The notes: generated by a model from the letters alone, not told the origin. A stretch of DNA of 64,000 nt from an uncultured Brevinematales bacterium (GCA_964428015.1 CAYRWR010000008.1:8916-72915); one strand, 5' to 3'; shown: positions 7,081-53,068, counted from the stretch's first letter. Translations and numbers: made by a program.

Positions 7081-9372
7081 TTGGGGAGCCAGATGAAACG
7101 TTTCGGGACATTTTCCGGAGTATTTGTACCTAATGTGCTGACCATCTTCGGGGTGGTGTTATTCTTCGGGACGGGGTCTCTGGTCGGAAATGCCGGTCTG
7201 CTGGGCTCCCTGCTGATAATTGTCATTGCCAATCTGATTACATTTTTTACCGCCCTTTCCATGTCTGCTATTACCACCAATATCCGCATCAAAGGAGGAG
7301 GGGCTTATTTTCTGGTGAGCCGCAGCCTGGGACCGGAAATGGGGGGAGCTATCGGGCTGACCCTGTATTTTGCCCAGATTTTTTCTATCGCGTTTTATAT
7401 TACCGGCTTCAGTCTGTCGCTGCAGCCTTTTTTTCCTCAGGTTGATATCCTGTTCATCAAGTTTGTCACCCTGGGGGTTCTGACACTTTTATCTATTTTC
7501 AGTGCTGAAATAGCCATAAAGGTCCAGTACGTGATTCTGGCCGCGGTGATGGCGGCAATTTTCTCGTTTTTATTCGGAAATCTGCGCTTTGATGTGCGGC
7601 CGGTACTGATGGGGACCTTCCCGGAACAAGGCTTCTGGAAGACATTTGCCCTGTTTTTCCCGGCCGTGACCGGTATCTTCGCGGGACTGTCCATGTCAGG
7701 AGATCTCAAAGAGCCCCACCGTAATATCCCAAAGGGGACTGTTTCCGCTATTCTGTTCACTTTTGCGATTTACGTCCTGATCGCGCTCAGTTTTAACTAT
7801 AACTACAGCAGTGCCGACCTCCTGGCTCATGATAGGATCATGATTGAGTCCGCCCTGGTGCCTTTTCTGGTGGTGATAGGAATCTGGGCAGCTACACTTT
7901 CTTCAGCCATCGGTATGGTGCTGGGAGCCCCCCGTACCCTCCAGGCTCTGTCGCGCGACCAGATCATGCCGCGATTTCTGGGAAAGGGCAGCGGCCCGGC
8001 AGATGAACCGCGGGTAGCCATGGTGTTGAGTGTAGTCATCGCGGGAGGATTGCTGCTCATCCGCAGTCTGGATGATATCGCCAATATTCTGACTATGTTT
8101 TTCCTGTCTACTTATGGTATAGTAAATGTGATCGCCGCGGTGGAGCTCCTGATCAGCAATCCTGCCTACCGCCCCCGCTTCAGGGTGCCCTGGTACATCA
8201 GTCTTCTGGGAGGGTTAGGGTCCTTTACCGCCATGTTTTTTATTGATCATTGGGCCACCCTGGTAGCCATAGTAGTTATTGTATTGATTTACTTTTTTAT
8301 TGCCAGGCGGCAGCTGCGTACCGACTGGGGGGATATCCGTAAGGGGTTCTGGGCCAGTGTAGCCGAGATCGCCCTGCAGAAGTATGAGAAATATCAAGAA
8401 CACCCCCGGAACTGGCGACCCCATATCGCTATTTTTGAAAATATTCCTCATATGCGGGAATCTCTGTATGATATTGCCAGTCTGATAGCCGGAAAAAGCG
8501 GGCTGGTTTCCTATTACCGCTTTGTGCAGGCCAACCTGGATCATCTGGGAGAGAGCAGTGATGAATTGGAAGAATTGAAATCCAGTCTGGAAGAAAAGAC
8601 CAGAGGATATGTCTACCCTGAGATCATTTATACCCTGCAGGACAGGAATGCCCACCTGGTGGCTCTCCAGGCTGACGGGATCGGTACTTTCAAGGCTAAT
8701 ACCATAATCTCTGATTTTCAACTGGAGGGAAAGACCCTGGAAGAGCACCTGAGCCGCCTCAGCCACTATGATACCTTGAAAAAAAATGTGATCTTGGTCA
8801 TGGATTCTACCACTCAGGTAGAGCCGGAAGATCGTATTGATGTCTGGCTGTCCGGTTTTCAGGCTAATATTTCCCTGATGCTGATGCTGCCCTTTCTGAT
8901 AACCCGTAACGCGGACTGGTCTGGTACCCGGGTGGTGATCAGGATGGTAGTCCGCACTGACCAACAGAAAGAAAATTCTGAAAAAAGCCTGCGCGGATTC
9001 CTGGCACAGGGCCGTATAGATGCCGAAGTACAGGTCATTTCCTTGGGAATGGAAGAGGTTAACCAGGCTGAAAAAACTGTGGCCAGAGAAAATAATGCGG
9101 AAGAAAAGCAGATGAAGAGAAAAGGTGTGTTCCATCGCTTCCGGAATTTCCTGGAAAATCTGGAGCAGCGCCGCTATAGTGAAGTGGACAGACAGCGTAT
9201 CAGAGACATTATCAGGGAGAAGTCCCAGGATGCACGGTTGGTACTGCTAGGGGTGCATGTGCCTGATGCTTCTTCAGCGGGCAGCGCCGCCCGGGACCTG
9301 AAAAAACTGCTTGCCGGATTACCCCGTACACTATTGGTCAAGGGACGACACAATATAAATCTGTTTATATAA
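7081..9372 (+). CDS. cation-chloride cotransporter (SLC12/CCC)-like APC-superfamily permease with large cytosolic C-terminal domain
   Basis: 763 aa. The N-terminus FGTFSGVFVPNVLTIFGVVLFFGTGSLVGNAGL and about 12 TM helices match the CCC/AA_permease pattern. The ~330-aa hydrophilic C-terminus resembles the SLC12 C-terminal domain. TTG 7081 is 6 nt after AGGAGG; ATG 7093 is an alternative start. Confidence 0.8.
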   Translation: MGSQMKRFGTFSGVFVPNVLTIFGVVLFFGTGSLVGNAGLLGSLLIIVIANLITFFTALSMSAITTNIRIKGGGAYFLVSRSLGPEMGGAIGLTLYFAQIFSIAFYITGFSLSLQPFFPQVDILFIKFVTLGVLTLLSIFSAEIAIKVQYVILAAVMAAIFSFLFGNLRFDVRPVLMGTFPEQGFWKTFALFFPAVTGIFAGLSMSGDLKEPHRNIPKGTVSAILFTFAIYVLIALSFNYNYSSADLLAHDRIMIESALVPFLVVIGIWAATLSSAIGMVLGAPRTLQALSRDQIMPRFLGKGSGPADEPRVAMVLSVVIAGGLLLIRSLDDIANILTMFFLSTYGIVNVIAAVELLISNPAYRPRFRVPWYISLLGGLGSFTAMFFIDHWATLVAIVVIVLIYFFIARRQLRTDWGDIRKGFWASVAEIALQKYEKYQEHPRNWRPHIAIFENIPHMRESLYDIASLIAGKSGLVSYYRFVQANLDHLGESSDELEELKSSLEEKTRGYVYPEIIYTLQDRNAHLVALQADGIGTFKANTIISDFQLEGKTLEEHLSRLSHYDTLKKNVILVMDSTTQVEPEDRIDVWLSGFQANISLMLMLPFLITRNADWSGTRVVIRMVVRTDQQKENSEKSLRGFLAQGRIDAEVQVISLGMEEVNQAEKTVARENNAEEKQMKRKGVFHRFRNFLENLEQRRYSEVDRQRIRDIIREKSQDARLVLLGVHVPDASSAGSAARDLKKLLAGLPRTLLVKGRHNINLFI

Positions 9373-9437
9373 AAATCTTTTTAATCCCTGAAAAAAGATA
9401 GAATTAATAGGCTTGCAGAGTTTCAGATGCAAAATAC

Positions 9438-9465
9438 TTGATATTTAGTAGGCTTATGTTAATAT
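9438..9465 (+). promoter_or_regulatory. candidate sigma-70 promoter
   Basis: TTGATA (9438-9443)-16 nt-TAATAT (9460-9465), upstream of the gene at 9509. Confidence 0.4.
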
Positions 9466-9508
9466 ACAATATGTATTCATGGCTATAATAATAACAGGAG
9501 GCGTTTAC

Positions 9509-10783
9509 ATGAAGTCTTTAAAGTTTTTGATGATGCTGACCGTACTTAGCCTGGGGCTTGGTTATGCCGGGGCGGAAGACCCCGCACCTTCCAAACCTAA
9601 ATTCGGCTTTGGTATTGAATTTGGTAATGTTACTATTAACGGTACCAATTATAATCAAATCAGGATGCAGCCTGACCTCGCCCTGGGGAAATTCGGCATC
9701 GGGCTGGATCTCAATATCGAATTCGATGCCAATGGCAAGATCCGCGCTGAAGAATGGACCAGCTGGCAGGCCATACTGGCCAAGATCACCTATATCCGGT
9801 TTGGTAAAAAATTCGAGAAACCAGTCTATGTAAAACTAGGCGGTATCAACGATTTTACCCTGGGACACGGGCAGATCATGTATCAATACAACAATATGCT
9901 GAACTATCCCAACGTCAAGAAGCTGGGCCTGGCCTTTGATCTTGATTTAAAATATGCTGGATTTGAAAGCATGCTTGATAACATTTTAAATCCTGATATA
10001 TTAGGGATTCGTGTTTTTGGTCGACCATTAATCAATCTTAAACTTCCAATTATCAACTCTTTGGAAATTGGAGCTTCGTATGTAGTTGATACTGACCCCT
10101 TGAACACAGTTTCCAATGCCTCACCCTACCTTTTCACCGATAATCCTCTGTCCCGCCCTGTGGGTGTCTGGGGCCTGGATCTGGGTGCCATTGTCCTCAA
10201 GAATTTTGTGGTGGATATGCTGGCTTATGCTGACTTCGTAGCTATCGAAGGTAAAGGGACAGGAGAAATCATGGGTGTAGCCGGGAAACTGATCTCAGTG
10301 ATCCCCTACCGCCTGGAAGTCCAGATTCTGCAGTCAAAATTTATCACCCGCTATTTCGATACTTTTTATGACGGTTCCAGAGCAGCCCTGTACAATAAAC
10401 TGGACACCTATACCAATAGTTACGCCGGACTGCTATTCAGTTCCGGGTTGTCGATTCTGGATGATAAACTGGCTTTCCTCATCACGATTAGAGATGCCTT
10501 TAATGATTCCATTCTCCCTGAGCTCCAGTTTGATTTCAAGCTGAGCAAAGACCTGCTGAAAAAAGTGGGCTTCACATTCAGCTGGTATAGAAAGGAAATT
10601 TTCTTTTTCACCGATATTTTCAAATTTGAAGATGTTAATTCTGTCATGATGACAGAACTGCAGTATATGGTGTCTGATAACCTGGCTCTGATCATCAATT
10701 ACAAGAGGACTTTCGAACTGGATTCTTCCGGAAACGTAGTCCCCTTCACCACCACCAGTATCAGTACCAAGATGTCATTTTAG
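9509..10783 (+). CDS. secreted protein, probable outer-membrane beta-barrel, unknown family (paralog of the C-terminal part of the next gene)
   Basis: ATG 9509 follows AGGAGG. Signal peptide MKSLKFLMMLTVLSLGLGYAGA. Alternating-hydrophobic strands and a C-terminal ...STKMSF (terminal Phe). Clear similarity to residues ~330-420 of the FecR-domain protein. Confidence 0.6.
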   Translation: MKSLKFLMMLTVLSLGLGYAGAEDPAPSKPKFGFGIEFGNVTINGTNYNQIRMQPDLALGKFGIGLDLNIEFDANGKIRAEEWTSWQAILAKITYIRFGKKFEKPVYVKLGGINDFTLGHGQIMYQYNNMLNYPNVKKLGLAFDLDLKYAGFESMLDNILNPDILGIRVFGRPLINLKLPIINSLEIGASYVVDTDPLNTVSNASPYLFTDNPLSRPVGVWGLDLGAIVLKNFVVDMLAYADFVAIEGKGTGEIMGVAGKLISVIPYRLEVQILQSKFITRYFDTFYDGSRAALYNKLDTYTNSYAGLLFSSGLSILDDKLAFLITIRDAFNDSILPELQFDFKLSKDLLKKVGFTFSWYRKEIFFFTDIFKFEDVNSVMMTELQYMVSDNLALIINYKRTFELDSSGNVVPFTTTSISTKMSF

Positions 10784-10799
10784 GTAGAGGAGGCATATT

Positions 10800-12794
10800 A
10801 TGTTAAAAGCATTGAAACATTTATTACTGGCCTGGATGCTGCTGGGTGCCGGAGCTCTGTACGGAGCCAGCCTCAAAGTAGTATCCTTCACCGGTGATGT
10901 GGAATACAAAGTCCCCAGCCAGGAATGGGCTGCAGTGGAAGTAGATGGGACTATACCCGAAGGCGCCCTCATCCGCGTGAACGGCGGGTCCGATTCTGTG
11001 ACACTGTCTCTGCCGGATGGTTCTGAGATCAACCTTCTGGGTCTCACCAGTATCAAGGTGGATGCCATACTGCAGGAAAATAAAAACACAGGATTCCGTC
11101 TGTTTTCAGGAAAACTGTTCGCCAAGGTCAATAAAAAGACCGGACAATCTTTCAAAGTAGAGACAGATAATGCAGTTGCGGCTGTACGCGGCACAGAATT
11201 CGGTGTGGATACACTGCTGGGTAATGTAGTGGTGAAAAACGGTTCAGTTGAACTGCAGGACCCTAATGGAGTAAATCCTCCAGTAACTATCGGTGCCGGG
11301 ATGTTCAGTTCCTTTGGCGCTGGTATTCCCTTCTCTGCACCTAAACTGGCTCCAGCCAATCTTTTCTCTCAGTTCGGAGTGACCCCTCCTGCCGCTAATA
11401 CTACACCGGATAATGGCAATACTAAGCCTGACGACAGCGGAGTAAATGTACCCGATACTGATGTAGATATGAACAAAGGGGACGACAAAGGTACGACAAC
11501 TCCCACCTCTGATAAAAAAGCTCCGGTCAGCTCTGAGTGTTCCTCTGCCGGCTTCCACTGGAGTGTCTCTTCTGAAAACATCGGCGGAGCGGTATGGAAT
11601 AAAGTCCTGTTAAGCCCCACCATGAAACTGGGTAATGTGATGCTGTCTCTGTATCTGCCGGTCTATTTCCAGAACCTGGATGACCTGGGCAACCGCACTA
11701 CCTGGTACAATGGTGATGAATGGAACTTTGGTATCCTGCCTGATACTCCCTTTAACTTTGGAGATTTTCTGCAGGACCTGCTGCTCAAGATTCGCTATGT
11801 GGGTTATCAGTCCCCCAAGGGTAACAAAACCCAGGTTCTCTTCCGTGTAGGTTCTATGCCTAATATGAGCCTTGCTCAGGGCCTGTTAATCGATAACTAC
11901 GCTAATGATATCCAGTTCCCTGCGGTACGCAAAGTTGGCCTGCAGTTTAATCTGGATCTGGGTAAATTCGGGTTTGAAACCCTGGTTGGAGATATCTTCA
12001 ATTTTGAGATGGCCGGACTGCACCTTTACTTCCGTCCTTTCTTTGGTAAATTCCTGATTGGCAAGATGTCCTTTGGTTTATCCTACTTCCTGGATTATGA
12101 CCCTCAGGGTGTGAACAGCGGAAATGTCATGGGTTATGCCGCTGACATTCTCTTCCCCATAATTGACATCCTGGGTACGACTATCAATCTCTATACCGAA
12201 GGCGGCACCATGGGCTATATGCTCCCCGGACAGGATCAGGTCCTGGCTAAAGGACTGGGAGTCAATGCCGGTGTGAAAGGTACTATTCTGGGTCTGATTG
12301 ATTATAAAGCCGAATACCGTCACCTTCAGGGCGGTTTCGATGCCGGTTATGTCAACACCTTCTATGATGTAGATAGAAGTACCAAAGTCTATGCCCTGGC
12401 CAATAATGGTTCTACCAACTATGACGGTTTCATGATTGAAGCCGGTAAGACCTGGGAAAAAGTAGGCGGACTGGCTTTGAAATTTGAGCAGCTCTTCCCC
12501 AGTATACCCACTTCACTGTCACAGATAGTGGATTCTCCCAACAACTATCTGCATATCGAACTGTGGATAGACAAATGTCTGTTCAAAAAAGCCTATGGCC
12601 GTATCATGTATGACCGTCAGAACTTTGCTCCCCAGGATTTCTTCAACAATTTCTTCTCTTCTGCGGTTATTACTTCACAGGTGTTCTATCAGGTTTCGGG
12701 TGAAACTTATATTGGTATGACTTATAAGAAGTTTTATGATGCCCAGGGTAATGTCCAGGATACTTATGGTCTGGAAACATCCATGGGTCTCTAA
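10800..12794 (+). CDS. FecR-domain protein fused to the same putative outer-membrane domain
   Basis: SD GAGGAGG. Signal peptide MLKALKHLLLAWMLLGAGALYGA. FecR-like block VVSFTGDVEYK...GSDSVTLSLPDGSEINL...FKVETDNAVAAVRGTEFGV. Followed by a Thr/Pro/Asp-rich linker and a ~400-aa domain homologous to the upstream gene. Confidence 0.7.
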   Translation: MLKALKHLLLAWMLLGAGALYGASLKVVSFTGDVEYKVPSQEWAAVEVDGTIPEGALIRVNGGSDSVTLSLPDGSEINLLGLTSIKVDAILQENKNTGFRLFSGKLFAKVNKKTGQSFKVETDNAVAAVRGTEFGVDTLLGNVVVKNGSVELQDPNGVNPPVTIGAGMFSSFGAGIPFSAPKLAPANLFSQFGVTPPAANTTPDNGNTKPDDSGVNVPDTDVDMNKGDDKGTTTPTSDKKAPVSSECSSAGFHWSVSSENIGGAVWNKVLLSPTMKLGNVMLSLYLPVYFQNLDDLGNRTTWYNGDEWNFGILPDTPFNFGDFLQDLLLKIRYVGYQSPKGNKTQVLFRVGSMPNMSLAQGLLIDNYANDIQFPAVRKVGLQFNLDLGKFGFETLVGDIFNFEMAGLHLYFRPFFGKFLIGKMSFGLSYFLDYDPQGVNSGNVMGYAADILFPIIDILGTTINLYTEGGTMGYMLPGQDQVLAKGLGVNAGVKGTILGLIDYKAEYRHLQGGFDAGYVNTFYDVDRSTKVYALANNGSTNYDGFMIEAGKTWEKVGGLALKFEQLFPSIPTSLSQIVDSPNNYLHIELWIDKCLFKKAYGRIMYDRQNFAPQDFFNNFFSSAVITSQVFYQVSGETYIGMTYKKFYDAQGNVQDTYGLETSMGL

Positions 12795-13376: not shown

Positions 13377-16226
13377 ATGAAAAAACTGATTTGGCTGCTG
13401 GTATGTTTTCTACCCTGGCAATGGGCAGGGGCTTTTGGAAAGAATAAAGTGACCTATCATGAATATAACTGGTATATTCTGGAATCTCCTCATTTCAGGA
13501 TCTATGTGACAGAACTGGACCAGAGCTTATCCAACCTGATACTGGATACTGCTGAACAAGCTTATGCTCTGCATGCCCGTCAATTTGGCTATCAACCCAA
13601 ATATAAAATAAAAGTCCTGTTATATCCCAACCAGATAGATTTCCAGCAAAACAATGTAACCACTGATTTTATTGGTGCCGGTACGGGCGGCTTTACGGAG
13701 TTTATTAAGGGCAGGGTGGTATTGCCTTTTTCCGGTGATTATGCCAACTTTGAGCACATTCTGTCACATGAGTTGACCCATGCTTTTCAGGGTTATACCT
13801 GGGGTCGGGGTTATATGGGTATCTCCGCTCTGATGGATATCAATGTGCCTCTCTGGTTTATAGAAGGCATGGCGGAATATGCCTCCATCGGCCTGGATAA
13901 TGAAGCTGAAATGATGGTCAGTGACGCTCTCTATCATGGTAATTTACCCAACCTGATGCAGTTAAGTTACCTAAATCTGCTTCCCCCCGATTACTATTTC
14001 TTTGTATATAAAGAAGGACAACTTTTTTTCTACTTTGCGGAACAGAAATATGGAACCAATATTCTGCCCCGTCTTAATGAATCAGTGGCATCCAACCGGA
14101 ATCTAAATGTCATTCTCACCAATGTCTTTCATAAGGATTTGGAAACTCTTAATGATGAGTTTTTTGATTTCCTTAAAGCACGCTATCTGCCTGAAAGTAT
14201 AGGCAAAGCCAATATCACTATGCAGGCCAAACGCATCTTGAATAAAGACACTCGCTTCAATATGAATCCGGTGTATGTGGACAGCAGCCGCATTGCCTTT
14301 ATCAGTGACAGACTGTTATATCCCTCAATTGTGATCGCCGACCGCAGGAAACAGACTCTGAAACGTCTGATAAAAGGCGGTTTTGATGAAAATTATCTGG
14401 AATTTCAGTATGGAAAAAGGAATAACCTTTCCATGGCCGGGACTAATATTCTGTGTTTTGTGAGCCGAAGCGGAGGCAGGGACGCTATTCAGTTATTAGA
14501 CATTAACACTCTAAAAGAGAAAACCCTGGATCTTCCCTTTAAAGTGATTCACTCACCGCAGATATCACCGGATGGAAAGAAGATAGTACTCTCCGCCAAC
14601 CGGGAGCATCAGGAAGATATCTTTATATATGAAATCGAGACAGGAAATCTGGTTCAGGTGACACAGGATATTTATTTTGATACCCAACCCCGCTGGCTGA
14701 GCAGTAATAAAATCGTTTTTGTGACCAGCCGGTATCATCCTCAGGACCAGGATAATAAGGATATCGTGATCTTTGACCTGGATAGTAATCAGGTGCTCAC
14801 CAGGCTGGATAGCGGATTTTCTGATGAATACCCTACCATTTCGCCGGACCAGCGTTATGTGGGATTTGTCAGTGCCAGCCGGCACCCCGTGCTGATGATT
14901 TATGACCGGGATAGCGCCCAGGTTTGGCAGGAGCTGGCACCCCGCGGGGGAATATTGTCTCCGCAGTTTGGCACCTCCAATCATATCATCCTGACTGCTT
15001 ACCGGGACAACCAGTTTAATATCTACGAATACAAGGCACAATTTAAAACCAAGGCCACCAATGTGGTTATCGAAGATATGGCAGGCCGTCAGGCAGGTGT
15101 GCCTCTGGAGTTTTTGTCACGAATGACGCTGCCCCCCCAGCCCTATAAACTGGAGCTGAGTATCGACAATCTGATAGGAGCTTTTGCCCTTAATTCTTCC
15201 CTCAAGGGTATGGCACTGGTAGGGATTATGAATGTGAGCGATCTGTTGGGTGATCACCGCTTTCAGCTGGTATTGGACTCACAGATTCAGATACAGACTA
15301 ATTTTTTTGATTATATCAATGCCGATCTCAGTTATCACAACGAGAAAAACAGGATCAATTATGGTTTCCGGTTTTTTAATTTTAGTAATTTCTTCTATGA
15401 ATTCCATACTTTTGAATCATTTACCCTGCTGGAGAGGAGTTATGCCTGGAGTGCGGGTCTATATGTTTTTGCCTCCTATCCTTTTTCAACATTCTCCCGT
15501 CTGGATCTGACCCTGGGCATCAGGGGATACAAATATATAGAAAATGTCACTCTGGTAGGCAGTAATTACCAGTATGAATACAGTCATCTGAACCGGGAAA
15601 CCCTGCAGCTGACCTGGGTCTATGATGCTACCCTGTGGGACTACACCGGCCCTGTTGACGGGATACGCATGGAAGCAGGGATAGAACAGTCATTCGCCAT
15701 TTTGTCTAATTCCATTCAATATACCCGTCTGCTGTTTGATTTCCGGCACTACATTATGCTGTTCCCCAATTATTCGCTGGCTTACCGGGCAGTGCTGGGT
15801 AAATCTCTGGGCAGAGACAGAATGGACTATCCTTACACCGTGGGGGGATTCAATTCTGTCCGGGGATATGATCTTTTCAGTTTCACCGGAGATAGTCTTT
15901 ACCTGATCAATCTGGAGTTCCGGTTTCCTCTGATCATAGACTGGACTATTGGATTTCCATTTCCGCTCCGGCTGCCTACTATCTGGGGAGTATTATTCTG
16001 GGATATGGGTTCAGCCTGGAAATGGGATGATGGATATAATCTTTATTATTACCAGGGAGAGAACCTGGTACTGGATGACCTGAAAATTGGTCTGGGTTTT
16101 GGTTTTCGACTGGTTCTTTTACCGGGGATTAAATTCATGGTGGATGTAGCTACACCCTATGACGGCCGGGGCGTACCCTCCTTATCCACCTGGAGGTCTT
16201 TCTGGCAGATAGGAGTCGATTTTTAA
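13377..16226 (+). CDS. large outer-membrane protein: HExxH peptidase-like domain + TolB/PD40-type beta-propeller + Omp85/surface-antigen (D15) beta-barrel
   Basis: Signal peptide MKKLIWLLVCFLPWQWAGA. HILSHELTHAF...WFIEGMAEY (gluzincin-like). PD40-like repeats (SPQISPDGKKIVLSAN, YPTISPDQRYVGFVSA). C-terminus GGFNSVRGYDLFSF...INLEFRFPL...GVLFWDMGSAW...WQIGVDF is typical of the Omp85 barrel. Confidence 0.75.
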   Translation: MKKLIWLLVCFLPWQWAGAFGKNKVTYHEYNWYILESPHFRIYVTELDQSLSNLILDTAEQAYALHARQFGYQPKYKIKVLLYPNQIDFQQNNVTTDFIGAGTGGFTEFIKGRVVLPFSGDYANFEHILSHELTHAFQGYTWGRGYMGISALMDINVPLWFIEGMAEYASIGLDNEAEMMVSDALYHGNLPNLMQLSYLNLLPPDYYFFVYKEGQLFFYFAEQKYGTNILPRLNESVASNRNLNVILTNVFHKDLETLNDEFFDFLKARYLPESIGKANITMQAKRILNKDTRFNMNPVYVDSSRIAFISDRLLYPSIVIADRRKQTLKRLIKGGFDENYLEFQYGKRNNLSMAGTNILCFVSRSGGRDAIQLLDINTLKEKTLDLPFKVIHSPQISPDGKKIVLSANREHQEDIFIYEIETGNLVQVTQDIYFDTQPRWLSSNKIVFVTSRYHPQDQDNKDIVIFDLDSNQVLTRLDSGFSDEYPTISPDQRYVGFVSASRHPVLMIYDRDSAQVWQELAPRGGILSPQFGTSNHIILTAYRDNQFNIYEYKAQFKTKATNVVIEDMAGRQAGVPLEFLSRMTLPPQPYKLELSIDNLIGAFALNSSLKGMALVGIMNVSDLLGDHRFQLVLDSQIQIQTNFFDYINADLSYHNEKNRINYGFRFFNFSNFFYEFHTFESFTLLERSYAWSAGLYVFASYPFSTFSRLDLTLGIRGYKYIENVTLVGSNYQYEYSHLNRETLQLTWVYDATLWDYTGPVDGIRMEAGIEQSFAILSNSIQYTRLLFDFRHYIMLFPNYSLAYRAVLGKSLGRDRMDYPYTVGGFNSVRGYDLFSFTGDSLYLINLEFRFPLIIDWTIGFPFPLRLPTIWGVLFWDMGSAWKWDDGYNLYYYQGENLVLDDLKIGLGFGFRLVLLPGIKFMVDVATPYDGRGVPSLSTWRSFWQIGVDF

Positions 16227-17104
16227 TCCTTTTTTTCCAGAGGATGAAAGCGGCTGTGGGTGTCCCGCAGCAGGCTGTTAGCTACATGGGTATAGATCTG
16301 GGTAGTGGAGATATCGCTATGTCCCAGCATCTCCTGCACCGCGCGCAGGTCTGCTCCGGCAGATACCAGATGGGTGGCAAAGGAATGCCTCAGAGTATGG
16401 GGGGATATCTCCAGACTGATATGGGCCTGCCTGGCTCTCTTTTTTACAATAGACCAGATACTGACCCGGGAGAGAGGCTCTCCCCTGCGGGATAAAAATA
16501 TTTCGTTTACAGGGGGGTGTCCGTTCAGGACTTCCCGGCGGAGAGGGAGATAGGCGCGGAGTCTTTGCAAAGCAGTTTTTCCCAGAGGCACCACTCTTTC
16601 TTTGTTTCCTTTGCCGATTACCCTCACTACACCGGATTCCAGTACAAAATCACCCAGTTTCAGATGGCACAGTTCAGATACCCTCAATCCCAGACTGTAC
16701 AGACACTCAATAATACAGCTGTCTCTAAGATCCTGGTATTCCTCTGTTTCACATTTCAGCATGGCTTCCACCTGCTTGATGCTGAGATAATGGGGTAAAG
16801 CCTTGTCATAGCGGGGAGAATCAATCAGATCAGCAGGATTGTCTTCCAGTTCGCCTGTACGCTGCAGATATTGGAAAAACCCTTTTAAGGCAGACAAATG
16901 GCGGGCTATACTGCGGGGATTTTGCCCCGCTTCATGCAAACTCACGATATAATCAAAAATGTCTTCTCGGGTCAGTTCCTGTGCGCTTTTTGGATGGATG
17001 AAATTGAAAAAGTGTTCCAGATCGCTTATATAAGCCTCTATGCTCAAAGTGGACAGCTGCCGTTCATACTGCAGGTAGAAAGCATAATCTTTTATCTGAT
17101 TCAT
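16223..17104 (-). CDS. xerD: tyrosine site-specific recombinase XerC/XerD family
   Basis: C-terminal catalytic motifs LGLRVSEL, HTLRHSFATHLVSAGADLRAVQEMLGHSDISTTQIYTHV. N-terminal SAM-like domain YLQYERQLSTLSIEAY. ATG 17104 aligns with XerD N-termini; the track ORF extends to a GTG at 17185. The 3' end overlaps the convergent gene by 4 nt. Confidence 0.85.
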   Translation of the reverse strand: MNQIKDYAFYLQYERQLSTLSIEAYISDLEHFFNFIHPKSAQELTREDIFDYIVSLHEAGQNPRSIARHLSALKGFFQYLQRTGELEDNPADLIDSPRYDKALPHYLSIKQVEAMLKCETEEYQDLRDSCIIECLYSLGLRVSELCHLKLGDFVLESGVVRVIGKGNKERVVPLGKTALQRLRAYLPLRREVLNGHPPVNEIFLSRRGEPLSRVSIWSIVKKRARQAHISLEISPHTLRHSFATHLVSAGADLRAVQEMLGHSDISTTQIYTHVANSLLRDTHSRFHPLEKKD

Positions 17105-17258
17105 GATACTAGTATCGGCGTATTTAGATAAGGTCTGAAAATCAGAAAAAGACGCAAAACCCCGGGGGTGTAAGTCATTTATCACAATACCATTTTATAA
17201 TTTGTTTAAACACAAAAAGGATGTTATATATATAGTAAGCCAAAATAAGGAGAAGAAG

Positions 17259-18371
17259 ATGAAGAAATTATTTGTTTTCCTGACTATGATATTTTTGACC
17301 ACGGCCCTGCATGCTGAACCTGGTCAGAGGGGTGAAGTGGACATGAGCCTCAATAACACCACCAAGTGGGGGTATCTCATCATCATTGACCAGAAGAAAG
17401 ATCAGATTATGTTTTATTCTACTGGGAAGAAACAAATGATGGCGGTTTATGACTACAAAAAAGGTTATTGGATCGAGACCAGCAAGTCTTTTGAAAAAAA
17501 GAACATCAATGAAGATGATCTTTTCCTCAAAAAACCAGTAGTTCTTCCCCCTGACCCCAACCGGCAGGAAATCGACTGGAACCTGAATAATACGGTTCAA
17601 TTCGGCTATCTCATTGAGATCCTCAAAGATAAGGACAATCCCCATATCCGTTTTTACACCACCAAGTCTAAAAAGATCATGGCCATCTGGGATTATCAGG
17701 CCAAAAAATGGGTGATCAAAGACCGGGATTTCAAGGAAGACGCTGTCGATATAAACAAATTCTATATAGTAAAAGTCAAACCGGTGGAAGAAATCAACTG
17801 GAGTCTGAATAACACGGTGCAATTCGGTTATCTTATTGAGATACTCAAAGATAAGGATAATCCCCATATCCGCTTCTACACCACCAAGTCTAAAAAGATC
17901 ATGGCCATCTGGGATTATCAGGCCAAAAAATGGGTCATCAAAGACAGAGATTTTAGTGAAGCCAGTGTCGATATCAATAAATTTTATGTGCAGGTACATA
18001 AGCCCTGGAAGAGAGGGAAGGTCAAACGTGCCCTGAATAATTCCGTGCAGTTTGGCTACCTCATTGAGATAAAACCTGAAGGCAACCCTCAGATACTATT
18101 TTACACCACCAAGTCCAAACGTCTCATGGGTATTTATGACTATATTCAGGATAAGTGGATCACCCGGGATAAAGATTTTAAAGACGACGGCATAGATATT
18201 AACCAGCTTTTTGATCCGGAAGAAACGGTTATTATCATTAAACCCGAAGATAAGAAACCGGAAAAGGAAGCAGATAAACCTGAACTGACTGATAAAAAGA
18301 AAAGTGAACAAAAGGAAAATAAACCGGGTGAACTGAAACCCTTTAAGCCTAAACTGAACAATCATAAATAA
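17259..18371 (+). CDS. secreted protein with four ~74-aa tandem repeats and Lys/Glu/Pro-rich tail, unknown function
   Basis: ATG 17259 follows AAGGAG. Signal peptide MKKLFVFLTMIFLTTALHA. Four units share the pattern (D/N)W.LNN(T/S)VQFGYLIEI...FYTTKSK..M.I.DY...KW..(K/R)D(R/K)DF...DIN. Tail KPEDKKPEKEADKPELTDKKKSEQKENKPGELKPFKPK. Confidence 0.7.
   Translation: MKKLFVFLTMIFLTTALHAEPGQRGEVDMSLNNTTKWGYLIIIDQKKDQIMFYSTGKKQMMAVYDYKKGYWIETSKSFEKKNINEDDLFLKKPVVLPPDPNRQEIDWNLNNTVQFGYLIEILKDKDNPHIRFYTTKSKKIMAIWDYQAKKWVIKDRDFKEDAVDINKFYIVKVKPVEEINWSLNNTVQFGYLIEILKDKDNPHIRFYTTKSKKIMAIWDYQAKKWVIKDRDFSEASVDINKFYVQVHKPWKRGKVKRALNNSVQFGYLIEIKPEGNPQILFYTTKSKRLMGIYDYIQDKWITRDKDFKDDGIDINQLFDPEETVIIIKPEDKKPEKEADKPELTDKKKSEQKENKPGELKPFKPKLNNHK
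17571..18014 (+). repeat. two near-identical 222-bp in-frame tandem repeat units (units 2 and 3 of the four-repeat protein)
   Basis: Unit starts ATCGACTGG at 17571 and ATCAACTGG at 17793 give a 222-nt period. A ~57-nt block (CACCACCAAGTCTAAAAAGATCATGGCCATCTGGGATTATCAGGCCAAAAAATGGGT) is identical in both units. The flanks differ mostly at third codon positions. Confidence 0.9.
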
Positions 18372-50284: not shown

Positions 50285-53068
50285 TCAAAACTGTCTGTCT
50301 GAAAAATATTCTCCCACCTGTTTTTGCAAGGGGGATATTCGTTGGGGAATTTTATCATCCTGGAATAAATATCCCGCGTCATAGGAGATGCCCCAGTGAT
50401 AACCCCATCTGTTGTCATTGATGGCATAGTAGACTTCACCGGCTACCCGGAGACCGATATACTGGAAGAGCACCATGTTGAGGCTCATGGAAACATACAA
50501 GCTATGGTAATAATCCTGCAGCAGACTGGCGGCACGGTAGCCTGCCAGAGAGTATAGCCTCTGGATGTAAAAGGGTAGAGCACCCAAACCTCTTTGTATT
50601 TCCAGACTAAACAGATTCATCCTGGCATTGGCGTAGAGGTAGAGAGTCCCGCTATCCGGCCGCAGGGCATATTCAGATAGGAGAGGTTTGTAATGGTAGT
50701 AAAAATCAAAATCACTCCCGCTCAGCGATAAACTACTGTTCAGCACCCAGGCGGCATGCATGGTCACGAATAGAGGCAGGGCCTGAGGGGAAAAGAAGGT
50801 GTCTGCTTCTATCTTCCACTTATCGCCCTGGAAAGGGTGATCCAGATAGAGACTGAACTGTATGCCTCTGGCCCGGGGAAAAGGATACAAACCGGTATAA
50901 CTGGATATCCGGGCCCATATTCCCCATTGAGTAGTCAGGAAGCTGTAGGGTGTGGCATATACCTGAGGAGAGTCAATGCTGATAAAGCTGAAGGCATCAT
51001 GTATCAGACTAAAACCCAGATGCAGGAAATGATTCACAGGCAGAAAATACCAGGTATGGCCTATGTCCAGGGAGATACTGGTACTGCGGAATTTATACGC
51101 GCTCAAATCAGGTTTAAAGAGTTCATCTTTAAAGCTGATCATCCAGGGTAATTCCGTAGCGGTATTCTGCCAGGTGATATCCAGATTGACAAATGGGGCC
51201 AGCAGGCTGTAATCCAGGTAGGGCATGATAATATTATTGCGGGAGGGGTCAGCCAGGTAGGTGACCAGTCCGATCCCCTGCAGGGATGTCCCGTACAGGT
51301 GGGGCCAGGGTGCCCATAATTGGGGCTTGAGAAAAGCCAGTGTTTTGTAGGGTTTCTCTGTGAGGTGAGTGACTGGAGGTAATGGAGCTTGATTGGTCAG
51401 ATTCAGCTCTTGCCACTGGACCCTGCTGGTGAGCGGGTGTATACCTGAGGGTAGCTGCATCAGTTTGTCACCCCGGGAAAACTGTCCCAGATAATACAAC
51501 CGGTCTGAAGTAATCAGGGGCAGGTGAATGCCACCCAGAATCTGATTGGTATATTGATAGAGGATGTCTCCTTCTATATAGGCTCCCTGACTCAAACCTC
51601 TGCCGTCATGCCAGGAAAAACAAATCTGATTAGAATGGACAGAGATATCCCTTATCTGAGGCAGAAGGGGTGTATTCGGACTTTCCGGTTGCGTCATAAT
51701 TTCCACAGAATTATTGTCCGGGTTAAATCGCGCGATATACTTTAATCCATGCAGACGCAGTGAAAAAAGGATACTGCCGTCCTGCCGGGAGGAAGGGCTC
51801 CCGAAATACATTTCCGGTTCACCCTGGAGTAGCACCTTTACTCCTTCCGGAGAGAGAAAGACCAGATCGGTGAGAAACCCCCGGGGCTGTACGGCGACGA
51901 TGCCGTCCCGGTAAAACCCGGCTTCTCTCACACCCGTCCATTGAACTTTTTCCCAGTGATGCCGTCTCAGGTCAAAAACCTGGACCAACAGACGGGGCTT
52001 GCCTCTTAACAGTGAAGACCGGCTGACCAGCAGGCGCCTACCGTCTGGGTGTAGTACCAGGCGGTCTATATAAGCATCAGTTTTTACTACCAGTTTTTCT
52101 TTGTGAGTGGCGGTGTCATAGCTGTATATAGCCTGTCGGAAGCCATCCTGATAGTATAGCAACCTGCCGTCACTGACTATTGAATCGACAGACAGGTAGG
52201 GCTTTAGGATGATATTGGTATTGGTGAGGAGGGGGAAATCCAGGATCATTGTCTTCCGGAAATCCTGCCATTCCTGTCTCAGACTATTGGTATAGGTGAG
52301 ACGGAAGCTGCCGGGCAGCATCAAAAAAGGATTACCCCCTCCGGTCCGGTGCCAGAGTTCCCGGTACTTATCCAGGCCGTATTTGCCAATCAAAAACCGG
52401 TTGAAATATCCCCCGTAGTGATAAATGATCCTCCCTCCAGGGTAGAGGTCAAAACCTCCGCTAGCCTGACTCAAGGATTTAAATCTGCCCTCAGCCTGAT
52501 CCTGGCGCAGTTCATCCTTAACTATATTTAAATTACCCCGGCCGAAACCGTCCAGACTTTCTACACTGACGGTCACCCCTTCTACCATAAAGCCGGGTAT
52601 CATGTACATCTGAGGCAGGACCCAGCTGCCGAAAAGGTGGTAGGCAAATTCCATCAAGGGGCCCCGGATGGTCAGAGATACGGCATGAGCGAGTTCATGG
52701 ATAAATAGTGCCTGGAGGTAGTCGGGATTATGGGCGATGACTGAATCGTTTTCGGAAGGATAGACATAAAGCACAATATGATTTTGAGGGAGGGGCAGAG
52801 AGTAGCCATTAGCCCCCTGATAATCATCAGAGAGCAGGACAGTGATGCGGTCAGTGCTGGCCCGCTGCAGCAAGCCCTGGACTCTTTCATAATAACTGTC
52901 GGCAAATCCAGCCAGACGCTGCGCTTCATAGCGACTGTAGTCTGAGTATAGTATATCAAAATATTTGGTACTGATTTGGAATAACCGTGTGCCGGGGGCT
53001 GTTTCGCCGCTAAAGGAAAAAGTGGTCAATAGAAAGATTAGCAGCAGAAAGTAAACAGATTTTTTCAT
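50285..53068 (-). CDS. large outer-membrane protein, distant paralog of 13377-16226 (HExxH peptidase-like N-terminus, beta-propeller-like middle, beta-barrel-like C-terminus)
   Basis: Signal MKKSVYFLLLIFLLTTFSFS. FIHELAHAVS...FMVEGVTVS. Same N-terminal layout as the other protein (F.I.Y...A.......I.VLL...HELxHA). Aromatic-rich alternating C-terminal third ending ...YFSDRQF. Confidence 0.65.
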   Translation of the reverse strand: MKKSVYFLLLIFLLTTFSFSGETAPGTRLFQISTKYFDILYSDYSRYEAQRLAGFADSYYERVQGLLQRASTDRITVLLSDDYQGANGYSLPLPQNHIVLYVYPSENDSVIAHNPDYLQALFIHELAHAVSLTIRGPLMEFAYHLFGSWVLPQMYMIPGFMVEGVTVSVESLDGFGRGNLNIVKDELRQDQAEGRFKSLSQASGGFDLYPGGRIIYHYGGYFNRFLIGKYGLDKYRELWHRTGGGNPFLMLPGSFRLTYTNSLRQEWQDFRKTMILDFPLLTNTNIILKPYLSVDSIVSDGRLLYYQDGFRQAIYSYDTATHKEKLVVKTDAYIDRLVLHPDGRRLLVSRSSLLRGKPRLLVQVFDLRRHHWEKVQWTGVREAGFYRDGIVAVQPRGFLTDLVFLSPEGVKVLLQGEPEMYFGSPSSRQDGSILFSLRLHGLKYIARFNPDNNSVEIMTQPESPNTPLLPQIRDISVHSNQICFSWHDGRGLSQGAYIEGDILYQYTNQILGGIHLPLITSDRLYYLGQFSRGDKLMQLPSGIHPLTSRVQWQELNLTNQAPLPPVTHLTEKPYKTLAFLKPQLWAPWPHLYGTSLQGIGLVTYLADPSRNNIIMPYLDYSLLAPFVNLDITWQNTATELPWMISFKDELFKPDLSAYKFRSTSISLDIGHTWYFLPVNHFLHLGFSLIHDAFSFISIDSPQVYATPYSFLTTQWGIWARISSYTGLYPFPRARGIQFSLYLDHPFQGDKWKIEADTFFSPQALPLFVTMHAAWVLNSSLSLSGSDFDFYYHYKPLLSEYALRPDSGTLYLYANARMNLFSLEIQRGLGALPFYIQRLYSLAGYRAASLLQDYYHSLYVSMSLNMVLFQYIGLRVAGEVYYAINDNRWGYHWGISYDAGYLFQDDKIPQRISPLQKQVGEYFSDRQF

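Follow-up and report, generated by a model that had tools for sequence, protein, structure and literature searches.

Omp85 proteins are central to building the outer membranes of bacteria, mitochondria and chloroplasts, and to our knowledge all characterised members insert or translocate proteins. Previously, Heinz & Lithgow (2014, Front Microbiol 5:370) have subdivided the Omp85/TpsB superfamily and recognised a 'WD40-like' subfamily that carries a TolB-like propeller. The present study concerns a protein of this kind, the 949-amino-acid (aa) product of an open reading frame (ORF1) at positions 13377-16226 of a 64,000-nucleotide (nt) stretch of DNA from an uncultured Brevinematales bacterium (GCA_964428015.1, CAYRWR010000008.1:8916-72915), which we call the window. 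Judged by its sequence and its structural model, ORF1 is an exported three-module protein that joins a gluzincin peptidase, a TolB-type β-propeller and an Omp85 barrel devoid of POTRA domains. A remote paralog, ORF2, is encoded elsewhere in the window.

For the WD40-like members, Table S3 of Heinz & Lithgow (2014) gives a BamA-type barrel (4k3b, 4c00), a TolB propeller (2w8b, 2ivz) and, as 'best aminopeptidase hit', 1z5h, 4kxd, 4fgm and 4ar1, while their Pfam tally gives PF01103 plus PF07676 repeats. The main text of that work treats the propeller alone, as a 'BamA-BamB fusion'; the catalytic residues, the invariant mature N-terminus and the gene neighbours described below are not discussed there. 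A 2024 paper sums up the subfamily as 'divergent WD40 and peptidase domains'. According to Hanson et al. (2024), the metalloprotease, WD40-like and patatin-like subfamilies 'have not been well characterized', and the WD40-like proteins form one of three enzyme- or propeller-bearing Omp85 branches that have been called uncharacterised 'intriguing targets'. When its architecture is compared with Tables S2 and S3, ORF1 falls into the WD40-like subfamily, whose three parts it shows with no essential difference. The members tabulated there (H1XQ58, D0MEQ5 and B0VIY2, for example) include, to judge from their accessions, proteins of Rhodothermus, Myxococcus, Caldithrix and Sorangium, and homologs of ORF1 come also from some of the lineages concerned, Cloacimonas and myxobacteria. 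The novelty that the initial annotation of this locus had implied for the architecture was thus overstated.

The same annotation had read ORF1 as a single exported polypeptide of 949 aa, and this proved exact: the frame is uninterrupted and begins with a predicted signal peptide. A Shine-Dalgarno site, GGAG, lies 7 nt 5′ of the ATG, and an identical protein is recorded on an independent assembly. Cleavage is predicted between MKKLIWLLVCFLPWQWAGA and FGKNKV; conservation among homologs begins at F20, and the predicted local distance difference test score (pLDDT) of the AlphaFold2 model is below 50 at aa 1-18. The features of ORF1 are as follows.

13377..16226, plus strand: ORF1 whole gene, 949 aa, peptidase-propeller-Omp85; uninterrupted open reading frame, stop codon included
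13377..13433, plus strand: predicted Sec signal peptide MKKLIWLLVCFLPWQWAGA, aa 1-19; read from the sequence by eye
13434..13469, plus strand: near-invariant mature N-terminus FGKNKVTYHEYN, aa 20-31; conservation in 120 homologs
13470..14225, plus strand: predicted clan-MA gluzincin peptidase module, aa 32-283; Peptidase_MA_2 above cut-off, model pLDDT ~90
13767..13781, plus strand: HELTH, predicted zinc-binding/catalytic motif with H131, E132 and H135, aa 131-135; 100% in 120 homologs
13863..13877, plus strand: EGMAE, with E163 the predicted third zinc ligand and E167 also invariant; conservation, PDB alignment
14007..14021, plus strand: YKEGQ, with Y211 the candidate catalytic Tyr; 100% conserved, weak PDB alignment
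14256..15077, plus strand: six-bladed TolB/PD40-type β-propeller, aa 294-567; model strands, TolB profile matches
15078..15155, plus strand: variable linker, aa 568-593; pLDDT 56-74, lowest conservation in the family
15156..16223, plus strand: 16-stranded Omp85 barrel, aa 594-949; model, PF01103, Foldseek, profile match
15858..15869, plus strand: VRGY motif of the L6 loop, aa 828-831, strands 11/12; conservation, model position
15996..16010, plus strand: FxDxG motif of strand 13, F874, D876 and G878; conservation, inside model strand 869-881

The motifs first quoted for ORF1 are all in place, namely HELTH (aa 131-135), EGMAEY (163-168), GGFNSVRGY (823-831), FWDMG (874-878) and the terminal F949. 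The assignment of a gluzincin-like domain, a TolB-type propeller and an Omp85 barrel without POTRA is likewise upheld, with Pfam, NCBIfam, AlphaFold2 and Foldseek in agreement. Pfam matches were judged by the curated gathering cut-offs and NCBIfam matches by the cut-offs of its models. Peptidase_MA_2 (PF13485) matched aa 58-267 with 35.5 bits against a cut-off of 32.4, and the isolated N-terminal domain reached 39.4 bits; with a profile of the isolated domain, 18 of 18 family N-domains matched Peptidase_MA_2 (best E 9.2e-16). PF01103 (Omp85) matched aa 692-912 with 49.8 bits (cut-off 24). Thus, both the peptidase and the Omp85 assignments stand above the Pfam cut-offs. PD40 scored 20.9 bits, the value of its cut-off, and precomputed Pfam matches include Tricorn_N and Tricorn_2nd.

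In NCBIfam, the TolB model TIGR02800 gave a partial match (E 2.7e-22; 79.3 bits, cut-off 343) that is restricted to the propeller part of the model, profile positions 205-299. An Omp85-family model matched under its full-length cut-off, and the BamA equivalog scored 12 bits against 1050. POTRA (PF07244) was not found in ORF1 by Pfam at E values up to 1, and the AlphaFold2 model has no beta-alpha-alpha-beta-beta unit between propeller and barrel. Patatin was not found in the Pfam scan either.

The AlphaFold2 model, built from an alignment of 56 homologs, has a pLDDT of 87.5 and a predicted template modelling score (pTM) of 0.85, and all three modules are seen in it. The chain runs from a mixed strand/helix N-domain (aa 32-283) through 24 strands in six blades of four (aa 294-567) and a linker of low confidence (aa 568-593) to 16 long barrel strands (aa 594-946). 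Against the PDB, Foldseek matched the model to BamA barrels (~1e-11) and TolB (2e-10), and a profile of the ORF1 family matched TolB structures (3.7e-29) and Fusobacterium nucleatum BamA (3.9e-17).

With BamA and TamA, ORF1 shares the 16-strand barrel, the L6 motif (V/I)RG(F/Y), the strand-13 FxDxG and a C-terminal aromatic residue (F949). It differs from them in that POTRA domains are absent, a peptidase and a propeller would take the periplasmic position, and the NCBIfam BamA models score far under their cut-offs. The likeness to TolB lies in the six-bladed PD40 propeller, TolB being the best PDB profile match of the family; however, ORF1 lacks the N-terminal domain of TolB, and Tol-Pal gene context was not seen around ORF1 or the related loci. 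With PlpD and the patatin-like Omp85 proteins (type Vd), ORF1 shares an Omp85 barrel preceded by an enzyme domain. In PlpD, however, this is a patatin lipase with one POTRA, whereas ORF1 has a metallopeptidase and a propeller and no POTRA.

Residue conservation was computed on the best 120 of 1,530 significant matches found with ORF1 in a protein database search. These are mostly 920-1,050 aa long and cover >90% of ORF1. HExxH, on whose conservation in orthologs the first reading of the protein had been made to depend, is carried by all 120, and HELTH and E163 are likewise invariant in a separate alignment of the ORF1 family. H131, E132, H135, E163, G164, E167 and Y211 are 100% conserved. In the barrel, R829 (96%) and G830 (100%) of the VRGY motif and F874, D876 and G878 of FxDxG (98-100%) are almost as constant.

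The profile of the isolated N-domain matched M9 collagenases and M1 aminopeptidases in the PDB weakly (E 0.02-0.07). In these alignments E163 falls on the Glu of 'NEG' in the M1 enzyme 3cia and on that of 'SEGVAEY' in the collagenase 7wss, and Y211 of 'YKEGQ' falls on the Tyr of 'PYVKGQ' in 3cia, a weak match (E 0.03). We take this Tyr of 3cia to be the one that is catalytic in M1 enzymes (Tyr383 of LTA4H). Because HExxH, E163 and Y211 align to M1/M9 enzymes, the module looks like a gluzincin with a seemingly complete catalytic set, and it resembles the gluzincins of clan MA(E) in having HExxH, a downstream Glu in an 'EG' context and a conserved Tyr in Y-x-x-G. M1 aminopeptidases have an HExxH-X18-E spacing and a GxMEN exopeptidase motif. 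In ORF1, the distance from HExxH to the Glu is 27 residues, and GxMEN is absent from the peptidase, where the strand preceding HExxH carries a conserved GGFTE instead. Membership in the M1 family was rejected on these two grounds and because the M1 matches in the PDB are marginal (E 0.03-0.07). Furthermore, the module is small (~250 aa) and, unlike M1 and M9 enzymes, has none of their flanking domains.

The most conserved segment of ORF1 is the mature N-terminus, aa 20-31, where the mean frequency of the top residue is 0.72. F20, G21, N23 and K24 are conserved at 97-99% across phyla, G21, N23 and K24 at ~99%. The stretch FGKNKV.Y is modelled with high confidence and without regular secondary structure, and it is missing from the ORF2 family, both in the family alignment and in profile-profile comparison. 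It might serve as an intramolecular regulator or plug of the active site.

The ORF1 family is widespread. When one genome for each species was scanned with a 12-sequence alignment of the family as query, relatives were confirmed at 292 places in species-representative genomes of many phyla. Carriers include Brevinematales, Leptospirales, Latescibacterota, Eisenbacteria, Krumholzibacteriota, Ignavibacteria, Cloacimonadota, Zixibacteria, Acidobacteriota and others, and the nearest relative in a reference genome is from Brevinematales, with 67% identity. Gene neighbourhoods were compared at 80 related loci, among which no universally conserved neighbour or operon partner of ORF1 was found. The commonest neighbour, at 14 of the 80, is a BamB-type PQQ_2 propeller lipoprotein encoded immediately downstream on the same strand. 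It matches PF13360 with 180 bits, and the BamB equivalog with 147 bits, under the cut-off of 285. Its gene begins ~100 nt past the ORF1 homolog (at L061, for example, it occupies 8673-9860), and its hosts are Ignavibacteria, Cytophagia, Eisenbacteria, Zixibacteria, Neomarinimicrobiota and one gammaproteobacterium.

Loci with the BamB-type neighbour: L028, L032, L036, L038, L047, L049, L051, L054, L056, L057, L061, L064, L066, L075

The initial annotation had also pointed to a second, highly diverged copy of ORF1 in the window. This is ORF2, whose features are the following.

50285..53068, minus strand: ORF2, 927 aa, remote paralog of ORF1; list of open reading frames, hhalign against the ORF1 family
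52685-52699, minus strand: HELAH of ORF2
52568-52582, minus strand: E163 of ORF2
52421-52423, minus strand: Y216 of ORF2
51404-52189, minus strand: propeller of ORF2
50378-51319, minus strand: 16-strand barrel of ORF2, of unrecognised type
50288-50377, minus strand: disordered tail of ORF2

The relationship between ORF1 and ORF2 needed profile-profile comparison, as BLASTP gave merely E 0.046 over 43 residues. With hhalign, the two families matched with a probability of 99.7% (E 3.4e-26, 646 aligned columns), the peptidases with 99.4% (E 1.7e-21) and the propellers with 96.8% (E 2.5e-10). By these sequence profiles ORF2 is a genuine remote paralog of ORF1 in its peptidase and propeller modules, and to this extent the earlier claim holds. 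It does not extend to the barrel, which has no detectable Omp85 sequence similarity and gave no hhalign match to the ORF1-family barrel (E 0.3). H124, E125, H128 and E163 are invariant in the ORF2 family and Y216 is conserved at >=90%. ORF2 has no Pfam or NCBIfam match, and its distant family members have no Pfam domains either.

In its AlphaFold2 model (pLDDT 84.6, pTM 0.86), ORF2 is laid out as ORF1 and has 16 barrel strands. Strands 11 and 12 of this barrel are joined by a loop of 33 residues, and 25-30 disordered residues follow it as a tail. In a structure search the model matched tricorn and prolyl oligopeptidase structures, and the only Omp85-type match among its top 50 was a weak one, to a chain of the SAM complex (sorting and assembly machinery; 7vku_A). 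A hidden Markov model of the ORF2 barrel matched no ORF1-type barrel in a search through intermediate sequences, and a PDB profile search with the ORF2 family returned no BamA. Among 1.84 billion proteins, a barrel-only profile found 216 cluster representatives (50% identity) of its own kind; the matches listed are nearly all ~900-1,000 aa long with a C-terminal barrel, or shorter fragments. This barrel has its own conserved motifs, 'LYFNR....GYRG' and an invariant E799 in the long strand-11/12 loop. Thus, only the number of its strands recalls Omp85, and its place in that superfamily is unproven.

The ORF2 family comprises ~60 full-length relatives, of which all named ones are Spirochaetota (Brevinematales, Treponemataceae, Termitinemataceae, Breznakiella). 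ORF1-type and ORF2-type proteins co-occur: in two pairs of matches the recorded length of the longest contig is identical (171,364 and 110,088), and one pair comes from the same metagenome-assembled genome. In members of Treponema type the chain stops at the barrel, on an aromatic residue, whereas those of Brevinematales carry a variable tail; therefore, the terminal Phe of ORF2, which stands on this disordered tail and not on the last strand, is incidental. The TP0304 ortholog of Treponema pallidum has been reported to carry a peptidase_MA_2 domain at a highly variable locus (PMC4222731, PMC12482175). Membership of TP0304 in the ORF2 family is not supported, no T. pallidum protein appearing in single-sequence or profile searches.

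In Omp85 barrels such as BamA, TamA and FhaC, strand 1 begins on the periplasmic side. When this BamA-type register was applied to the strands of the ORF1 model to assign the sides of loops and turns, the turns on the N-terminal side turned out short and gapless (0% gaps) with a mean conservation of 0.51, whereas the loops on the opposite side, L6 excluded, had a mean conservation of 0.29, 20% gaps and many insertions. From the strand register together with the conserved short turns as against the variable loops, we infer that the peptidase-propeller unit is on the barrel's periplasmic side. PlpD, the only studied Omp85 protein with an enzymatic N-domain, also counts for this placement: its enzyme domain was long believed to be exported and has since been shown to be periplasmic (Hanson et al. 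2024). The linker (aa 568-593) varies in both length and sequence and has the lowest conservation (0.19) and the largest insertion load in the family. Because it is hypervariable, a free tether is favoured over a segment threaded through the pore.

Our preferred explanation, to which we assign a probability of about 0.5, is that ORF1 would be an outer-membrane-tethered, propeller-gated periplasmic zinc peptidase whose substrates are unfolded envelope proteins or peptides. The peptidase-propeller unit would sit in the periplasm beneath the barrel, held by the variable linker. The propeller may be a substrate filter or binding platform, so that only unfolded chains or peptides would reach the active site. 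Gating is proposed by analogy with tricorn, prolyl oligopeptidase and DPP-IV, enzymes whose active site is shielded by a propeller, and from the tricorn and prolyl oligopeptidase matches of the ORF2 model and the precomputed tricorn-propeller matches of ORF1 in Pfam. The analogy with tricorn and prolyl oligopeptidase is one of function only, as they are serine peptidases whose catalytic domains are not homologous to that of ORF1. The most likely job of ORF1 would be the removal of unassembled or stalled outer-membrane or periplasmic proteins. Since it has a complete Omp85 barrel with invariant motifs and a recurrent BamB-like neighbour, quality control of the envelope and its outer-membrane proteins appears the most attractive role. 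The barrel would then be an anchor and possibly a docking site for β-barrel substrates, and ORF1 would be a single-chain analogue of the partnership between BamA and BepA. BepA has been described as a zinc metalloprotease acting at the BAM (β-barrel assembly machinery) complex. This analogy, too, is functional only: BepA is an M48 enzyme with tetratricopeptide repeats and a separate soluble protein.

Several points weigh against this explanation. Conserved turns combined with variable loops are common to outer-membrane proteins at large, and they speak for how the barrel is oriented but not for where the N-domain finally lies; in principle, a 26-residue linker is long enough to cross the barrel lumen. 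The alignment of the catalytic Tyr depends on the weak PDB match at E 0.03. The BamB-like neighbour is missing in 66 of the 80 loci, no such gene adjoins ORF1 in the window, and PQQ_2 propeller lipoproteins are common proteins generally. To name a substrate class, whether misassembled outer-membrane proteins, other proteins of the envelope or nutritional peptides, is pure inference. Literature searches found no functional study of the architecture or of any family member; therefore, ORF1 belongs to a kind that has been catalogued since 2014 and is functionally unexplored.

A periplasmic peptidase need not be concerned with quality control. It could trim imported oligopeptides for nutrition, with the barrel as a mere anchor, and this we consider rather unlikely. 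The enzymes closest to it, in Table S3 of Heinz & Lithgow as in the PDB, are M1-type aminopeptidases and M9 collagenases, the conserved GGFTE strand would stand, by presumed positional equivalence, where M1 enzymes have GxMEN, an amino-acid permease gene lies ~4 kb upstream of ORF1 in the window, and the family is enriched in peptide-fermenting lineages. Linkage to peptide transporters is not conserved among the 80 loci, however, and the exopeptidase motif GxMEN itself is lacking. Moreover, a nutritional role leaves unexplained both the recurrent BamB-like neighbour and why a complete Omp85 barrel with invariant motifs is kept where a lipid anchor would suffice.

A bolder version of the quality-control role, somewhat less probable again, is that ORF1 could be a self-contained 'degrading' counterpart of BAM. 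Here the barrel seam would engage stalled or misfolded β-barrels and hand them to the gated peptidase, possibly together with the adjoining BamB-type lipoprotein in some phyla. The ORF2 family would then be a second version, in which the barrel has diverged beyond recognition or has been replaced.

The initial annotation had suggested a surface-anchored protease, and one way to reach the surface would be for the barrel to export its own peptidase-propeller passenger in a type V-like manner, the enzyme then digesting extracellular proteins for nutrition or in cell interaction. Omp85/TpsB barrels are able to translocate polypeptides, and export of this kind has been raised for the enzymatic Omp85 subfamilies (Heinz & Lithgow 2014). 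A linker of at least 26 residues could span the barrel, and many carriers, among them Cloacimonadota, Latescibacterota and Ignavibacteria, degrade protein or amino acids in anoxic habitats. Nevertheless, the POTRA domains that every characterised translocating Omp85/TpsB protein possesses are missing from ORF1. The motifs that lock a closed BamA-type barrel, in L6 and strand 13, are intact, the linker is hypervariable both in its sequence and in its length, and a passenger of ~550 residues with two folded domains would be large for such export. PlpD, the paradigm of this idea, retains its enzyme domain in the periplasm. As barrel topology, turn/loop conservation and the PlpD precedent favour the periplasm, we regard surface display as a poor prospect.

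Highly improbable is the idea that ORF1 is a non-catalytic assembly scaffold, a 'BamA plus BamB in one chain' in which the HExxH domain is a pseudo-enzyme and the propeller recruits partners. It follows a published suggestion (Heinz & Lithgow 2014) and agrees with the intact Omp85 barrel motifs. However, invariance of H131, E132, H135, E163 and Y211 in 120 homologs is unexpected for a dead enzyme, and the pseudo-enzyme reading was rejected on this ground; the zinc/catalytic set is kept in the diverged ORF2 family too, including Y216. Furthermore, the ORF1 propeller is six-bladed and of TolB/PD40 type, whereas BamB is an eight-bladed PQQ type, and a separate BamB-type gene often adjoins ORF1 homologs. 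Finally, a chimeric frame created by mis-assembly or frameshift was dismissed as having practically no chance, given the same uninterrupted layout in more than 1,500 database proteins of about 920-1,050 aa, the 292 confirmed places and the identical protein on an independent assembly.

The surroundings of ORF1 in the window comprise a divergent ssb, a convergent xerD-like recombinase gene, transporters and glycoside hydrolases. The xerD-like tyrosine recombinase (16223-17185, minus strand) overlaps the stop codon of ORF1 by 4 nt, and the convergent arrangement is repeated in the closest Brevinematales relative (L002). Upstream of ssb lie two co-oriented genes (9479-12794, plus strand). The first encodes a 434-aa protein with no Pfam match and the second an exported protein of 664 aa that has a FecR domain at its N-terminus and, C-terminally, a long region without annotation; on the independent contig L001, too, these two genes stand ahead of ssb and ORF1. 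Past the recombinase gene, positions 17202-18371 (plus strand) encode an exported protein of 389 aa that has no convincing match in Pfam and consists of repeated units of ~74 aa. Two adjacent copies at 17568-17987 have 88% DNA identity and a period of 222 bp, more diverged copies appear to flank this pair, and the C-terminal tail is rich in lysine and glutamate. Among the 80 related loci, 12, mostly of Acidobacteriota, have, on the same strand and immediately upstream, a gene for a ~230-aa lipoprotein that neither Pfam nor NCBIfam matches.

Loci with the upstream lipoprotein: L055, L058, L062, L063, L070-L074, L077, L080 (5150-5893, as an example), L081

ORF1 itself is one more member of the WD40-like subfamily. 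Our study adds to this subfamily the full set of invariant catalytic residues, an invariant mature N-terminus and a recurrent BamB-like neighbour, and places beside it a sister family (ORF2) with no Pfam match, named members only in Spirochaetota and an unrecognisable barrel. If ORF1 is a 'degrading' counterpart of BAM, it would be an outer-membrane quality-control machine of an undescribed kind. More generally, if an active metallopeptidase does sit at the periplasmic face of the barrel, a degradative function would be added to the Omp85 repertoire, and ORF1 would provide a single-polypeptide model of quality control coupled to the outer membrane in little-studied phyla.

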